Shown in pieces: positions 6,811 to 53,624 of a stretch of 64,000 bases of DNA. The position numbers and the translations under genes are program-made. Every line of letters begins with the position of its first letter. Positions within the stretch are counted from its first letter, which is position 1. The notes under the pieces were generated by a model. That model saw only the letters and a program-made list of their open reading frames with translations, ran no database searches and was not told the DNA's origin. This DNA comes from a virus (Duplodnaviria > Heunggongvirae > Uroviricota > Caudoviricetes): positions 2,948 to 66,947 of the IMG/VR virus record IMGVR_UViG_3300021979_000001, one strand, 5' to 3'.

Positions 6811-7074
6811 TTATTCACACCCATGACCACGACCATAACCATAACCATAACTATCCTCAAACCCATTCCCATTCCCAAGCCCTCTCCCAAAACCATGACC
6901 TTCACCATTCCCCGAACCATACCCATTCCCAGAACCATCGCCATCGCCACCACTATGACCATCACCAGACCCATCCCCATAACCATGACCATCCCCAGAG
7001 CCATAGTCGTATCCATGATAGGTTTCAGGAATATATATATTGATGTAAAACGATTGGTTTATGTATGGTTTCAT
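6811..7074 (-). CDS. Gly-X repeat small protein, subfamily E
   Basis: N-term MKPYINQSFYINIYIPETYHGYDYG. Confidence 0.6.
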   Translation of the reverse strand: MKPYINQSFYINIYIPETYHGYDYGSGDGHGYGDGSGDGHSGGDGDGSGNGYGSGNGEGHGFGRGLGNGNGFEDSYGYGYGRGHGCE

Positions 7075-7127: not shown

Positions 7128-7382
7128 TCATTTGTTATGGCTCGCACCATTACCAAATCCATAACATGCTCCATTACCACTACCACGACCACGACCATTG
7201 CTATAACCATCACCATCACCATCGCCATCACCAAACCCATGACCATAACCATCCCCAGAGCCATCCCCATCGCCAAAACCATCACCATACCCGTCATCAT
7301 CACCATAACCATGACCTGATGTATAATAGATTTCATGATCAGATGGATTGATACCAAAATACTGACTTATGTATGGTTTCAT
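7128..7382 (-). CDS. Gly-X repeat small protein, subfamily E variant
   Basis: N-term MKPYISQYFGINPSDHEIYYTSGHGYG; near-identical to the copy at 7437..7691. Confidence 0.6.
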   Translation of the reverse strand: MKPYISQYFGINPSDHEIYYTSGHGYGDDDGYGDGFGDGDGSGDGYGHGFGDGDGDGDGYSNGRGRGSGNGACYGFGNGASHNK

Positions 7383-43933: not shown

Positions 43934-45673
43934 ATGGTAATTAAGGATATATCTATGCAAGTTAAGAAACGAAATGGTTCAATGGAGCCAGTAAATCTCG
44001 ATAAAATTGTTAAATCCATTGAAGCGGTAGCAACGGGCCTGGACGGGGTTGATGTTTTCCGAATCGCGCAGAAAACCGTTGGTGGACTAGTTCATGGTGT
44101 TACCACACGTGAACTCGATATGTTTTCAATTCGAAACGCGGCTGGGTTGATTATCGAAGACCCCGTATATTCCAAAGTCGCGGCCAGAATCATGCATAAC
44201 GTCATTTCCAAAGAAGTATCAGGACAAGATATTCAATCTTTTTCACAATCAATCAGTCTTGGTTACGAAATGGGGTTGATTGATGAACAAACATATAATC
44301 TGGTTATGAATAATAAACGCAAGTTAAATGCGTCTATTAAAACCGAACGTAGTGATTTATTTGAATTTCACGGAATCATCACTGTTTATGATAGATACCT
44401 GTTGAAGCATCGTGATTTGATGGCTGGCTCTGGGACGGATCGTCGTCGGGCAGTAATTGAAACCCCGCAATATTTCTTCATGCGTGTCGCTTGTGGTTTG
44501 GCGAATGATGCGAAAGAAGCAGTTGAACTGTATAATCTGGTATCATCGCTTGAATATATGACATCAACACCGACATTGTTTAATTCCGGGACATCACATA
44601 CGCAAATGTCGTCCTGCTATCTGCTTGATAGCCCGAACGATGATTTGCAGGATATTTATAAACGATATTCGGATATTGCCTCCCTATCAAAATTTGCGGG
44701 TGGCATTGGTGTGTCTGCTAGTCGCATTCGGTCTAAAGGTTCCCCCATTAAGGGCACAAACGGTCGTTCAAACGGTATCATTCCATGGTTACACACCCTG
44801 TCTGGATCAGTTGGGGCAGTCAACCAGGGCGGCAAGCGCAAAGGTGCTGCATGTGTTTATCTTGAACCACACCATGCTGATGTAATGCAGTTTTTGGAAT
44901 TGCGTGACCAGACGGGTGAAAAAGAACGTCGTGCCTATAACCTTAACATTGCAAATTGGGTATCTGATTTGTTTATGTCACGCGTCAAGAATGATGAAAT
45001 TTGGTCATTGTTTGATCCGGCTGATGTTCCAGAACTGGTTGATCTTTATGGTGATGAATATACCAAACGGTATCTTGAACTTGAAGAACAGGGAAAATTT
45101 GTTGAACAGATTAGCGCACGAAAAATTTATGCGCGAATGATGCGCACCCTGGCAGAAACCGGTAATGGTTGGATGTGCTTTAAAGATACATCCAATAATC
45201 GCGGGAATCAGGTGGGCGAGGGACGCTCGATCAAGCTGTCAAACCTTTGTTTTGCCCCAGATACCATCATTCATGCAAAACTGGGTGATAAGGTAATGGA
45301 CATTGAAATCAAGGCATTAAGTGATTATTTCAGCGTTGGTATTCCGGTTCAGGTTTGGTCGTTCAACGAAGAAACACACGAAATGGAATGGAAAAATGTG
45401 GTGAATGCCGGATTGACCAATCCTGATGCGGAATTGATGGAAATCGAAACACCATCCGGTAAAATAATTCGTTGCACGGAAGATCACCCCATGCTGACTG
45501 AACGCGGGTGGGTTAATGCTGGCGATCTAACCGAAGACGACTCTCTTGTTGAAGTTGATACCACGCAAGAAGTGCATAAATTCGAACATTGGAATAAAGA
45601 TAAACACATGGTAACCGAAATTATCATGGATCATCTTTATTCCAAAAATAAAAAAACCAGCGTCATTATGTAA
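43934..45673 (+). CDS. nrdA: class I ribonucleotide reductase alpha subunit, N-terminal fragment, ending in a split-intein N half (IntN)
   Basis: ATP-cone/NrdA-like sequence up to ..IKLSNL, then CFAPDTIIHAKLGD...GKIIRCTEDHPMLTERGWVNAGDL (Hint N-blocks, DnaE IntN-like), then a stop. Confidence 0.75.
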   Translation: MVIKDISMQVKKRNGSMEPVNLDKIVKSIEAVATGLDGVDVFRIAQKTVGGLVHGVTTRELDMFSIRNAAGLIIEDPVYSKVAARIMHNVISKEVSGQDIQSFSQSISLGYEMGLIDEQTYNLVMNNKRKLNASIKTERSDLFEFHGIITVYDRYLLKHRDLMAGSGTDRRRAVIETPQYFFMRVACGLANDAKEAVELYNLVSSLEYMTSTPTLFNSGTSHTQMSSCYLLDSPNDDLQDIYKRYSDIASLSKFAGGIGVSASRIRSKGSPIKGTNGRSNGIIPWLHTLSGSVGAVNQGGKRKGAACVYLEPHHADVMQFLELRDQTGEKERRAYNLNIANWVSDLFMSRVKNDEIWSLFDPADVPELVDLYGDEYTKRYLELEEQGKFVEQISARKIYARMMRTLAETGNGWMCFKDTSNNRGNQVGEGRSIKLSNLCFAPDTIIHAKLGDKVMDIEIKALSDYFSVGIPVQVWSFNEETHEMEWKNVVNAGLTNPDAELMEIETPSGKIIRCTEDHPMLTERGWVNAGDLTEDDSLVEVDTTQEVHKFEHWNKDKHMVTEIIMDHLYSKNKKTSVIM

Positions 45674-45817
45674 GTATTGTGGTAAAAATCCGGTAGGTCG
45701 TAATAAAACATCATATCGAAAATGTTGCGACCTGCCGGAATTTAAATGAAATATACAACTATGAAGTTAAATGTGCAAATGATGTTTCATTTGAACATAT
45801 ATGAAAGGCTAAAATAA

Positions 45818-47092
45818 ATGGCATTAAAAATTCGTCGCACCGGAGAAAGAAGTCCGGTATATGATTTGCATGTTGCAGATAATCACACGTTCGTAGCGGA
45901 TGGTCATATTGTCCATAATTGCACCGAAATTTTAGAAGTCACATCATCTGGTGACAAGTTAAAAATGAGTCGTGAACAGATTGCGGCCTTAACCAAAGAT
46001 GACATGATTAAGGACAATATCCGTGTTGTTGGCTTTGACCATAAGACTGATCAATTTGAAGTCATTAAGGGAATGGAAACTGCGGTTTGTAATCTTGGCT
46101 CGATTAACCTGTCTCGTGGTTATGTCAAGGCTGGCAAACTCGACAAAGTAAAGTTGCGAAAGAATGTTGCAATTGCGGTTAAATATCTTGATCGCGTTAT
46201 TGATCGTAATTTTTATCCAATCCCGGAAGCAGAATCATCGAATGATCGGTGGCGTCCAATTGGACTTGGATTGATGGGTCTGGCGGATTTCTTCTTTCAG
46301 ATTGGATTACCATTTGGCAGTGATGAAGCAATTAAATTGTCTGGTGAGATTCAGGAAGAAATTTATTATCAGGCATTGGTGACATCTAACGAATTGGCAA
46401 AAGAACATGGCCCACATCGTGATTTCGATTTAACACGGGCGGCCAAAGGAGAATTACAATTCGATTTGGCGGGCGTAGAAGTGGCCGACAAAGAGCGTTG
46501 GGATGATCTTAAGGCATCCATCATGGAACACGGCTTACGCAACTCCTTGGTCATTGCAATCGCTCCCACGGCCACTATTAGTCATATCGTTGGGGCCGAA
46601 GAATGCATTGAACCAATCAAGTTTAATTTGATGAAACGCGAAACCTTGTCCGGTGAATTTATTTCGATCAATAAGTATTTGGTTCGTGATCTGAAAAAAC
46701 TTGGGCTATGGGATGAACGCATGCGATCATTGCTAACACGAGAAAATGGTTCGGTCCAAAACTTGCCGGTTCCTGATGAAATCAAAGAACTCTATAAAAC
46801 AGTTTGGGAAATATCACAGAAAGACATCATCGCCCATGCTGTTGCTCGTGGTGCCTTTATTGATCAAAGCCAGTCTCTCAATCTGTTCCTGGACTTGACC
46901 AAACATGCACCGGATAAGCGCATCGGTGTTGTATCAAAACTTTATATGCATGCATGGGAAATGGGTTGCAAAACAACTTATTATTTGCGCACACGATCAG
47001 GAAGTCAGATTGAAAAGGTGACGATTAACAGTCAGTCATCTGCCCCTGCGGCGGCACCGGAAAATCCAGATATTTGTGAAAGCTGCACCTAA
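45818..47092 (+). CDS. nrdA: split-intein C half (IntC, 35 aa) fused to the RNR alpha C-terminal fragment
   Basis: MALKIRRTGERSPVYDLHVADNHTFVADGHIVHN followed by CTEI..; own RBS GAAAGG 9 nt upstream of the ATG; NrdA C-terminal region with the C-terminal Cys pair. Confidence 0.75.
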   Translation: MALKIRRTGERSPVYDLHVADNHTFVADGHIVHNCTEILEVTSSGDKLKMSREQIAALTKDDMIKDNIRVVGFDHKTDQFEVIKGMETAVCNLGSINLSRGYVKAGKLDKVKLRKNVAIAVKYLDRVIDRNFYPIPEAESSNDRWRPIGLGLMGLADFFFQIGLPFGSDEAIKLSGEIQEEIYYQALVTSNELAKEHGPHRDFDLTRAAKGELQFDLAGVEVADKERWDDLKASIMEHGLRNSLVIAIAPTATISHIVGAEECIEPIKFNLMKRETLSGEFISINKYLVRDLKKLGLWDERMRSLLTRENGSVQNLPVPDEIKELYKTVWEISQKDIIAHAVARGAFIDQSQSLNLFLDLTKHAPDKRIGVVSKLYMHAWEMGCKTTYYLRTRSGSQIEKVTINSQSSAPAAAPENPDICESCT

Positions 47093-47102
47093 TCACGAAA
47101 AA

Positions 47103-47134
47103 GGTGGTCGCCATTGTGCGACCACCTTTGTTTT
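47103..47134 (+). terminator. rho-independent terminator after nrdA
   Basis: perfect 9-bp stem ggtggtcgc/gcgaccacc with a 6-nt loop, followed by tttgtttt. Confidence 0.7.
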
Positions 47135-47147
47135 ATTGGAAAAAAGA

Positions 47148-47768
47148 ATGAATGATTTCACCGAATTTGATGAAAATTATGTAAATAATTTATCACAGCC
47201 GAAACCAGCATTATTTCATATTTTAGGTAAGTATGATACGTATCAAGAATATCGTATTAAAGCAAACGACTATAAATATATCAATATCGAAGCCCCATAT
47301 CGGCAGTATTTTGACAATTTGAACCAATTAAACCATTATTGGAAATTCAGTGGTTCCGAAGATATATCATATCAGCGATCTATTATATTAGTTGGAGAAA
47401 ATCAATTATTTGAGTCATTCATGGACATTTGTGCCGAGTTTGAAATTAGATATTTGGTTATTCTTCAACAAACTATATGTGGGACTACGTTCACATGCCT
47501 TGATGAAGATTTTCAAATCATAAATCCAAAAAACACAATATTGCTCAATCAATTAATAACTGCGCATAACTCATGGTTATTTGCGTATTCTATGAGTTGT
47601 AATTTCATTCATCGGTTATATTTTGCAGGCATATTTGACATAGTTTCGAGAGAAAAAATATACCAGGCATTGCCACATGATCAGACCATTGAATGTGATG
47701 ATATATGCGAAAACATGAAACAAAAACGATATTCTGAAATTCTACAACCATGGTTTACCACAGTATAA
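47148..47768 (+). CDS. hypothetical protein
   Basis: start MNDFTEFDENYV, downstream of the terminator; the track ORF starts inside the terminator. Confidence 0.4.
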   Translation: MNDFTEFDENYVNNLSQPKPALFHILGKYDTYQEYRIKANDYKYINIEAPYRQYFDNLNQLNHYWKFSGSEDISYQRSIILVGENQLFESFMDICAEFEIRYLVILQQTICGTTFTCLDEDFQIINPKNTILLNQLITAHNSWLFAYSMSCNFIHRLYFAGIFDIVSREKIYQALPHDQTIECDDICENMKQKRYSEILQPWFTTV

Positions 47769-52613: not shown

Positions 52614-53624
52614 ATGTCATTATTAGACCCTGGCTTCGACCTTACCCTGCGACCAATGAAATACCCGAAATTTTTTGATGCATTTCGTGATGCACAGAAT
52701 AATAACTGGTCCGTTCAGGAAATTTCATTTGCAACGGATTTCACCGACCTTCAAGAAAAACTTACCCCTGCTGAACGGCATGTAGTTTCCCGGTTGGTTG
52801 CATTTTTTGCTACTGGCGATAATATCGTTGCAAACAACGCCGCATTGACCTTGTATCGCCATGTCAATTCACCCGAAGCCAGATTATATTATTCCCGGCA
52901 GATTTTCGAAGAATCGTTGCATGTCGAATTTTACCTTACCCTATTGGACAATTATATCCCCGATCCCGAAGAACGGGCGGAAATGTTCCGGGCAATTGAA
53001 ACCATCCCATCTGTTAAGAAAAAAGCAGATTTTGCAATGAAATGGATGGATCAAATGGATTCAATTGATCGGTTGGAAACAAATGATCAAAAAAAGACAT
53101 TTTTGATGAATTTGTTGGCATTTGCCACCTGCATTGAAGGACTATTTTTCTTTGCGGCATTTGCGTATGTATATTATCTTCGAGATCGTGGTTTGTTACA
53201 TGGCTTGGCATCGGGGACCAACTGGGTGTTTCGCGATGAATCATGGCATATGCGATTTGCATTCGATGTTATTGACGTAGTTCGCAAAGAAAACCCGGAA
53301 TTGTGGGATGACGATCTTGAAACCCGCATTTATGAAATGCTGGATGAAGCAATCGATTGTGAAATGCAATTTGCCGACGATGTTTTGACCATGGGTGTGA
53401 TTGGCCTTTCAAAAGATGATATGCGCGAATATCTGCAATATACTGCCGATAATCATTTGCGTCGTTTGAACATGAAACCATGCTATGACTCTAAATGTCC
53501 ATTTGATTTCATGCTAAAACAAGACGTGCAAGCATTAACCAGCTTTTTCGAACGCACAGTATCAGAATATTCTGTAGGTATTGGCGGAAATGTTGATTTT
53601 GATGATGATGACGTTGATTTTTAA
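52614..53624 (+). CDS. nrdB: class I ribonucleotide reductase beta subunit
   Basis: ferritin-like di-iron motifs (EESLHVEFY, EGLFFFAAFAY, DESWHMRF) and an acidic C-terminal tail. Confidence 0.8.
   Translation: MSLLDPGFDLTLRPMKYPKFFDAFRDAQNNNWSVQEISFATDFTDLQEKLTPAERHVVSRLVAFFATGDNIVANNAALTLYRHVNSPEARLYYSRQIFEESLHVEFYLTLLDNYIPDPEERAEMFRAIETIPSVKKKADFAMKWMDQMDSIDRLETNDQKKTFLMNLLAFATCIEGLFFFAAFAYVYYLRDRGLLHGLASGTNWVFRDESWHMRFAFDVIDVVRKENPELWDDDLETRIYEMLDEAIDCEMQFADDVLTMGVIGLSKDDMREYLQYTADNHLRRLNMKPCYDSKCPFDFMLKQDVQALTSFFERTVSEYSVGIGGNVDFDDDDVDF

Follow-up and report, generated by a model that had tools for sequence, protein, structure and literature searches.

How does a phage keep an essential enzyme whose gene is cut in two directly before the codon of its catalytic radical residue? 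The question is raised by nrdA, the gene of the large subunit of a class I ribonucleotide reductase (RNR), on a stretch of 64 000 nucleotides from a virus of the Caudoviricetes (IMG/VR record IMGVR_UViG_3300021979_000001, positions 2948-66947; we refer to this whole stretch as the window, and coordinates given without a contig label are positions on its + strand). The window is phage-like in its content, with a DnaB-like helicase, a primase, an exonuclease, a virion protein and nrdB being encoded. As judged from the sequence, nrdA very probably consists of two adjacent cistrons on the same strand, broken within a class-1 mini-intein that lies between Leu438 and the thiyl-radical residue Cys439 (Escherichia coli numbering); protein trans-splicing would then unite the two products, and an endonuclease gene that formerly lay between the cistrons would have been lost. 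Such an arrangement is already known from phage metagenomes and our current understanding is unchanged, since endonuclease-less split RNR genes are frequent (11 of the 80 loci that were sampled). The new detail here is the endonuclease relic, and the locus has some value as a documented evolutionary intermediate.

Split intein at the thiyl-radical cysteine

The gene is carried by two open reading frames (ORFs). The first (ORF1, 43934-45673, 579 residues) encodes residues 1-438 of NrdA, up to the motif ..SNL, followed by the N-terminal intein half (IntN) and a tail, and the second (ORF2, 45818-47092, 424 residues) encodes the C-terminal intein half (IntC) followed by Cys-Thr-Glu-Ile and the remainder of NrdA. 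They are separated by a gap of 144 nt (45674-45817). The N-extein (43934-45247, ending in ..KLSNL) comprises the ATP-cone, the all-α domain and the first half of the barrel, as delimited by Pfam and by colinearity with the intact NrdA proteins of three related contigs (L001, L002 and L003). The C-extein (45920-47092, 390 residues) has the thiyl-radical cysteine as its first residue (CTEI, equivalent to C439-x-E441 of E. coli) and contains the AVCNLGS, TTYY and C-terminal CESCT motifs. In Pfam, ORF1 matches ATP-cone, Ribonuc_red_lgN and positions 1-212 of the 523 positions of Ribonuc_red_lgC (E = 3.5e-73), together with the N-terminal part of Intein_splicing (E = 1.9e-8), while ORF2 matches the last 31 positions of Intein_splicing (125-155; E = 1.6e-5) and positions 189-523 of Ribonuc_red_lgC (E = 8.6e-102). 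The assignment to class I is supported by the ATP-cone and by the presence of nrdB (52614-53624; Pfam Ribonuc_red_sm, E = 1.9e-81), which encodes the RNR small subunit, the partner of the spliced NrdA, about 5.5 kb downstream of nrdA. The first-pass annotation of this DNA, made by a model from the letters and their ORFs, had proposed that nrdA is interrupted by a split intein directly before the catalytic cysteine, and the ORF coordinates, the Pfam matches and the intein profile match described below confirm it.

At the junctions, ORF1 reads ..KLSNL|CFAPDTIIH..RCTEDHPMLTERGWVNAGDL.. (codon of Cys439 at 45248-45250) and ORF2 reads ..GHIVHN|CTEILEV.. (codon of Cys35 at 45920-45922). The IntN core (45248-45559) is 104 residues long (CFAPD...SLVEV), begins with Cys1, contains the block B motif T-E-D-H (in ..RCTEDHP..) and has a net charge of -15. 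IntC (45818-45919), of sequence MALKIRRTGERSPVYDLHVADNHTFVADGHIVHN before |CTEI, has 34 residues and not the 35 first counted; it contains the block F Asp/His, the penultimate His and the terminal Asn, and its first 12 residues have a net charge of +3. In the family alignments, Cys1 (Cys439 of ORF1) is invariant in 7/7 members, Thr77 and His80 of the block B T-x-x-H motif are invariant columns, and the block F Asp and residues H33, N34 and +1 C35 of ORF2 (..IVHN|C) are invariant too. All of the canonical class-1 intein residues are therefore found in the two halves, including the terminal ones (Cys1, His-Asn and the +1 Cys) on which the first-pass annotation had asked for re-inspection.

A single-sequence search with the joined IntN and IntC of the window matched the NrdJ-1 intein (PDB entry 8ubs) with E = 2e-15. 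With a profile built from five fused IntN-IntC pairs, the match to 8ubs reached E = 2.1e-29 in one contiguous stretch running across both halves. The same profile matched 45 solved intein chains, of which NrdJ-1 was the best, and DnaE inteins reached only E values of 1e-6 or weaker. The alignment to split-intein families thus bears out the intein itself, whereas the idea that its C-terminal half is of the DnaE type does not hold: the nearest relatives are the metagenomic split inteins NrdA-2 and NrdJ-1. Overall, the closest allele is that of contig L018, with 71% identity in the IntN core (compared with 36% to the IntN of NrdA-2) and with 31 of the 34 IntC residues the same; IntC is 46% identical to that of NrdA-2 over the aligned segment, which includes the first extein residues. 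The intein is broken between blocks B and F, where an endonuclease domain canonically resides. Indeed, the end of the IntN core (..DDSLVEV) aligns with the end of the NrdA-2 IntN (..DDELVFS), and the start of IntC aligns with that of the NrdA-2 IntC. A VH(K/N)(L/F)E motif just past the split point is common to most family members.

Beyond the core, IntN continues into a tail of 37 residues (DTTQEVHKFEHWNKDKHMVTEIIMDHLYSKNKKTSVIM) that ends at a TAA stop codon (45671-45673; tail and stop, 45560-45673). The first-pass annotation had listed both; they are present, and the tail is a conserved feature of the lineage rather than junk. A DNA alignment with L018 shows that it is conserved there (..IIMDHLY.. 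is retained through four synonymous changes). Being in the IntN frame and conserved with L018, the tail is not endonuclease debris, and it may be a functional extension of IntN. The possibility that it is a remnant of an HNH endonuclease was dropped, as Pfam searches with the tail and with the frameshift-extended tail and relic peptides came back empty. Family members were found by an exhaustive HMMER search with IntN plus tail, which returned many proteins terminating directly behind an IntN (P0001 on contig L014 was the best, with 52% identity); a word-indexed protein search with the same query gave no match at E <= 1e-3, and megablast of the locus against GenBank phages gave none either. 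A group I intron was also considered for the interruption and rejected: Rfam, run on 45400-46000, shows no intron or known RNA, with only sub-threshold look-alikes of hairpins.

The two halves have separate translation signals. As had been noted, the C-terminal half has a ribosome-binding site and an ATG of its own: GAAAGG at 45803-45808 lies 9 nt 5' of the ORF2 ATG at 45818. For ORF1, the first ATG (43934) has no ribosome-binding site. The ATG at 43955 is preceded by AAGGA 9 nt upstream and coincides with the start of homologous NrdA proteins (MQV[RK]KRNG), so that it is probably the true start and the annotated ORF1 is seven codons too long.

On this basis, the two products, NrdA-N plus IntN plus tail (65 kDa) and IntC plus NrdA-C (48 kDa), would be translated separately, probably from one transcript, and IntN, which is acidic, would associate with the basic N-terminus of IntC to complete a HINT domain. 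Trans-splicing by this domain would then proceed through an N-S acyl shift at Cys1, trans-thioesterification to the +1 Cys, cyclisation of the Asn and an S-N shift. Its product would be a contiguous NrdA of 828 residues (92.7 kDa, and not about 85 kDa as first estimated) with the native sequence ..SNL-CTEI.., and intein pieces of 16 and 4 kDa would be released. Alternatively, the halves could assemble non-covalently and never splice, with the intein halves and the conserved 37-residue tail acting merely as an affinity clamp. Fragmented NrdA can work unspliced: in phage Aeh1, nrdA is split by mobE and the halves, both of which are expressed, assemble non-covalently into an active RNR (Crona et al., 2010; PMC3045599). 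The presence of a conserved extra tail on IntN also speaks for this alternative, which we nevertheless regard as very improbable. Binding alone needs none of the splicing residues (Cys1, TxxH, HN and the +1 Cys), yet these are strongly constrained. Moreover, judging by the known RNR structure, the intein precedes the thiyl-radical Cys right at the finger-loop tip of the active site, where a HINT domain of 140 residues left unspliced should block catalysis. Finally, the homologous NrdA-2 intein, which is naturally split with the junction SNL/CNE, does splice: it shows approximately 89% cis-splicing as a fusion and is active in trans-splicing in vitro (Pinto et al., 2020; PMC7090010).

Authenticity and constraint of the two halves

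The trans-splicing reading supposes that the break is real. Were it an assembly or sequencing artefact, a contiguous intein, either a mini-intein or one with an endonuclease inside it, would have been broken only in the data: an indel or mis-join, as could occur in the A-run at 45643-45657, would have produced both the stop codon and the apparent second gene. An A-rich, homopolymer-like run (CCAAAAATAAAAAAACC) does lie just 5' of the ORF1 stop, and ORF1 and ORF2 share one frame. However, six in-frame stop codons lie between the two ORFs, and stops are also present in the other two forward frames of the gap. Moreover, the exact ORF1 protein occurs on four public contigs and the exact ORF2 protein on five (Logan SRR7168051 and SRR7168050, JGI 3300021977 and ENA ERZ23499214), and those that cover the region have 0 mismatches to the window. 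Five contigs built by different pipelines out of at least two sequencing runs agree in every base, which excludes an assembly artefact. In addition, the IntN stop and the IntC ATG are found at homologous positions in four other loci (L018, L014, L015 and L016), the IntN of which are only 43-62% identical, and a random error would not recreate them; the ribosome-binding site and ATG of IntC are also placed exactly at the start position of NrdA-2 and its relatives. We thus consider an artefact to be scarcely credible. These homologous positions and the junction shared with NrdA-2 also support the earlier proposal of a genuinely fractured gene, joined by trans-splicing as in phage metagenomes.

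When the conceptual spliced NrdA is compared with intact, intein-free NrdA proteins, the alignment runs gap-free across the junction, with identities of 71% (L001), 69.5% (L002) and 63% (L003). L001 and L002 are syntenic relatives, as their upstream neighbours are also shared with the window. The catalytic motifs SSC(225), SNLCTE, AVCNL, TTYY and the C-terminal CESCT are all present.

Comparison with L018 shows how the different parts have diverged. Its C-terminal ORF has the same length (424 residues), and the C-exteins are 71% identical. The proportions of nonsynonymous (pN) and synonymous (pS) differences between the window and L018 are 0.21 and 0.94 for the IntN core, 0.07 and 0.94 for IntC, 0.14 and 0.86 for the N-extein and 0.195 and 0.80 for the C-extein; as synonymous sites are saturated between these two alleles (pS above 0.75), no numeric ratio of nonsynonymous to synonymous rates (dN/dS) is given. 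The values clearly point to purifying selection, with the intein as constrained as the enzyme, and such a match is what would be expected if function requires splicing.

Endonuclease relic and hairpins in the spacer

What was the spacer before it became a short gap? In four related fractured nrdA genes, an ORF for a putative homing endonuclease lies between the IntN and IntC halves. That of L014 (1837-2760, 307 residues) overlaps the IntN ORF, and its stop codon overlaps the IntC-type ATG. A word-indexed search of a 5.8-billion-protein collection returned only three further homologues, in L018 (629-1540, 303 residues), L016 (661-1560) and L015 (5001-5906, 301 residues), so that all four clusters detected there lie inside fractured nrdA genes. 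When viral contigs were scanned with the L014 protein as query, no relatives came up. The proteins of this family have about 300 residues; their N-terminal motif is [LI]CK[YF]C..C..C, their C-terminal one, YLPDF..IIEIKG, is of the PD-ExK type, and they match PHROG 29037, annotated as 'endonuclease' (E = 1.2e-7). Pfam has no family for them, the closest being TnsA-like with E = 0.048. A profile of the four full-length relatives weakly matched two entries in the PDB through the PD..ExK-type motif, namely 8gy8 (E = 0.0016; its deposited label is putative translation initiation factor) and the Bax1 endonuclease (E = 0.04-0.08). The same profile matched no Vsr chain at E up to 10, and we therefore call the family putative homing endonucleases of the PD-ExK type and not Vsr-like.

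In the window, the spacer contains no ORF longer than 32 residues, so that no intact free-standing homing-endonuclease gene lies between the halves. To this extent the first-pass annotation, which described a gap of 144 nt free of ORFs and of any homing endonuclease, was right; a dead stump of such a gene and two strong hairpins are nonetheless present inside it. The stump is an N-terminal relic of 36 codons (45639-45749), in the +1 frame relative to ORF1, which can be written as I(ex-Met)PKIKKPASLCKYCGKNPVGRNKTSYRKCCDLPEFK*. In the alignment with L018, the endonuclease start codon has mutated from ATG to ATT (45639-45641); the relic frame reads IPKIKKPASLCKYCGKNPVGRNKTSYRKCCDLPEFK*, and the L018 endonuclease begins MPAKLPDPLCKFCGVYPVVKNVHGNRMIRCASPEC. 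A hidden Markov model built on the N-termini of the four endonucleases was run against the window in six-frame translation; of all 2318 fragments, it matched the relic alone (E = 4.2e-5; the next fragment had E = 1.3). Relative to the IntN stop, the relic sits where the endonuclease genes of L018, L014, L015 and L016 sit, and the overlap with this stop has been kept (TTATGTAAG compared with CTTTGTAAG). At the other end of the spacer, a relic of the last eight endonuclease codons (45794-45817; NIYERLK*, compared with NIYNRTTTQWH* in L018) includes the GAAAGG at 45803-45808. Nucleotide alignment by blastn pairs window 45025-45644 with L018 15-634 and window 45794-47022 with L018 1505-2738, so that 870 nt of L018, essentially its endonuclease gene of 303 residues, correspond to 149 nt in the window. 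L018 is the useful comparator for the relic; a MAFFT alignment of the DNA with L014 was uninformative at that divergence.

The endonuclease gene thus appears to have been lost here, leaving a 5' stump and a few 3' codons. According to the history that we propose, a free-standing PD-ExK endonuclease gene inserted into the intein at the usual site of the endonuclease domain, thereby splitting it, a state still seen in L018; in the lineage of the window, the endonuclease start codon was then lost and about 720 nt (net) were deleted. The remnants would be the 36-codon stump and the eight 3' codons, the latter still supplying the ribosome-binding site of the C-terminal half. One could instead suppose an ancestral split that never had an endonuclease, the 'relic' being a chance frame containing CxxC, and a later gain of the endonuclease in L018 by homing into an existing spacer. 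Homing endonucleases do invade endonuclease-less alleles, and when compared pairwise with one endonuclease, the relic resembles it only weakly (E = 1.9). The profile, however, singles the relic out among 2318 fragments; the match starts at the codon homologous to the endonuclease ATG, with the same overlap with the IntN stop; and the 3' end of the endonuclease gene, too, has an aligned counterpart in the eight codons that precede the IntC ATG. An ancestral split is therefore unlikely in our view, and loss of the endonuclease is the preferred history.

The first of the two hairpins, H1 (45589-45645; inverted repeat I10), has a perfect outer stem of 13 bp and an inner stem of 8 bp (folding free energy dG = -22.1 kcal/mol, z = -6.85), and its 3' arm covers the dead endonuclease start codon. 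The second, H2 (45689-45739), has a 17-bp stem within the endonuclease relic (dG = -27.7 kcal/mol, z = -7.55); no U-tract follows the stem, and two G.U pairs make the sense RNA stronger than the antisense. Together they bracket the ORF1 stop, and the spacer as a whole is far more structured than chance (z = -6.0). Both are absent from the homologous parts of L018 and L014 (the L018 stretch matching H1 has z = 0.18), and seven other endonuclease-less spacers are unremarkable (z from -1.9 to +1.1). No other copy of H2 exists in the window, and the reading of H2 as a repeated genomic element was rejected. H1 and H2 may influence how stable the mRNA is, how it is processed or how translation is balanced; they may equally have arisen as by-products of mutation if this stretch is now neutral. 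A more elaborate proposal, which we hold to be rather doubtful, is that the hairpins form an RNA device that arose after the endonuclease, processing, stabilizing or balancing the half-messages so that matched amounts of the intein halves are made, and that additionally, or instead, the 37-residue tail (..IIMDHLY..) is an affinity or solubility module.

Concerning transcription, a terminator-like hairpin (47100-47129; inverted repeat I18) lies directly 3' of the nrdA stop and has a 12-bp stem with seven GC pairs followed by GTTTTATT. No terminator-like site was found between the two nrdA halves, a sigma-70-like scan of the spacer gave nothing convincing, and the T4-type late promoter motif TATAAATA was not enriched and had no occurrence in the spacer. 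With no terminator between the halves, a strong one after ORF2 and no convincing promoter in the spacer, the two halves are probably co-transcribed. An ORF called at 47076-47768 overlaps the terminator-like hairpin, which makes its start doubtful. Between nrdA and nrdB lie, among others, genes for methyltransferase-like and 2-oxoglutarate/Fe(II) oxygenase-like proteins, as well as genes for radical-SAM proteins on the other strand.

Given a clearly decayed endonuclease gene and odd, very stable hairpins next to it, might nrdA itself be a decaying pseudogene, the halves of which no longer splice, in a locus that is being lost along with the endonuclease? The state of the two ORFs makes this highly unlikely. 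Both long ORFs are intact, all of the intein and RNR catalytic residues are retained, and nrdB is intact. The nonsynonymous divergence from L018 is 4- to 13-fold below the synonymous divergence, in the intein and the exteins alike. The relic moreover shows what real decay looks like at this same locus, namely loss of the start codon and a large deletion.

Several points nevertheless weigh against a trans-spliced nrdA that has lost its endonuclease. Splicing activity is deduced from homology and conservation only, and the order of the evolutionary events is likewise one that we infer. Single-sequence AlphaFold2 prediction of the fused intein gave no usable model (predicted local distance difference test score, pLDDT, of 33.7), so that the assignment of the fold rests on sequence profiles. 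The relic match is short, with 26 aligned residues, and pairwise tblastn with the L014 endonuclease gave only the E value of 1.9 quoted above, which is insufficient alone; the relic is thus convincing only when the family profile and the positional correspondence are taken together. The five identical contigs may share one sample or site, which excludes an assembler error but not a defective variant dominating that population. The saturation of synonymous sites noted above limits the comparison with L018, and the very stable H2 might lower the expression of the downstream half or uncouple it.

Known fractured genes and related loci

Seven fractured NrdA loci were described in the Global Ocean Sampling metagenomes, in which a split intein immediately precedes the active site of the thiyl radical (Dassa et al., 2009; PMC2677866). 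All seven (NrdA-1 to NrdA-7) carry a free-standing endonuclease gene, of the GIY-YIG or Vsr-like type (PMC2677866). The gene is present there, whereas the window has only a dead stump, derived from an endonuclease of the PD-ExK type with an N-terminal CxxC..C motif. NrdA-2 nevertheless has several features in common with the locus described here: it is inserted in the large subunit of a class I RNR at SNL|C and split after ..DDxLV, its IntC of 34 residues starts with M-[AG]-L-K-I, and its halves, in phage surroundings, lie next to each other and point the same way. It also has the polarity of an acidic IntN and a basic IntC (PMC2677866) that is seen in the window. The NrdA-2 construct, in contrast, has no 37-residue IntN tail, and the sequence of the window is divergent from it and represents a distinct allele lineage.

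The same authors described the gp41-7 locus, which has no endonuclease, and proposed loss of the endonuclease as step III of their gene-breaking model (PMC2677866). The window is such an endonuclease-less derivative, like gp41-7, and not a full member of the fractured-gene class. In both cases the halves of a split intein are adjacent and no endonuclease gene is present, although the host gene differs (the gp41 helicase compared with NrdA). The gp41-7 locus keeps a hairpin upstream of its C-terminal half, whereas the hairpins of the window are not common to its endonuclease-bearing relatives. In the window, moreover, remnants of the 5' and 3' ends of the gene document the loss, as does the sister allele L018, in which the endonuclease is still present. 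The step had been inferred from the single gp41 locus by Dassa et al. (2009; PMC2677866), and the paired alleles, with the endonuclease in L018 and the stump in the window, provide direct sequence evidence for it. The window is thus the NrdA counterpart of gp41-7, with the added value that the loss is visible as a relic beside such a sister allele; it would represent a natural, late-stage 'fractured gene' in which an essential phage enzyme permanently depends on trans-splicing after decay of the selfish endonuclease.

Three other systems are instructive. NrdJ-1 (PDB entry 8ubs), the closest solved structure, is also a split intein of a metagenomic phage RNR with the same split point, but the RNR is of class II, the insertion lies one residue further towards the C-terminus, and the +1 residue and the flanks differ. 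In the nrdA/mobE system of Aeh1 (Friedrich/Gibb/Edgell), a phage nrdA is likewise found in two adjacent genes and a free-standing homing endonuclease is responsible; Aeh1, however, has no intein, and its halves are joined non-covalently by tails made by the insertion, whereas the window has a complete split intein. The cyanobacterial DnaE inteins (Ssp/Npu) are naturally split class-1 inteins with an IntN of about 100 residues and an IntC of about 35 residues, active in trans-splicing, but their halves are encoded at distant loci in another host protein, at another insertion site, and share only general intein similarity with the window. Protein engineering makes use of the fast NrdJ-1/NrdA-2 group, of which the intein of the window is a member; it is one more candidate orthogonal Cys+1 split intein, with SNL/CTE junctions, an IntN of 104 residues (plus the 37-residue tail) and an IntC of 34 residues.

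A scan of IMG/VR with the intein profile gave 80 loci, of which 22 have a contiguous intein and about 45 have an ORF of 200-370 residues between the halves. In 11 of the 80, the spacer is at most 150 nt long and contains no ORF above 50 residues; these include RNR genes split at SNL|C (L023, L028, L034 and L061/62, with L034 and L061 checked by eye). Endonuclease-less split RNR genes are thus frequent in public viral contigs. A further locus, L038 (3167-3933; NrdA-2-like, with the junction SNL/CNE), has a spacer of 347 nt with a truncated ORF of 100 residues, and looks like another, independent case of endonuclease decay; in its relatives L033 and L036 the spacer is 803 nt long and contains an endonuclease ORF of 252 residues.

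Other inteins are found in related nrdA genes. In L015 (1705-7044; Logan SRR15458562), nrdA is in three pieces, with two different split inteins, each accompanied by its own free-standing endonuclease ORF (one of 392 residues with an ..IEFHGEKFH.. motif and the one of 301 residues from the PD-ExK family). The nrdA of L005 (6700-7300; IMGVR_UViG_3300037418_003772) has no intein at SNL|C and carries a different, split intein at APTA|C..HN|TISH (IntN ORF stop at 7008, IntC ORF starting with GTG at 7195), which is contiguous in L009, as well as a large contiguous, endonuclease-containing intein at SSC|..|CYLLD. Finally, L009 (78-3149; IMGVR_UViG_3300047335_000156), the NrdA exteins of which are 80% identical to those of the window, has three contiguous inteins. 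Its intein at SNL|C ends in ..VFNGILTGQ, like the RIR1 intein of Chilo iridescent virus, so that unrelated inteins occupy the same site in close relatives.

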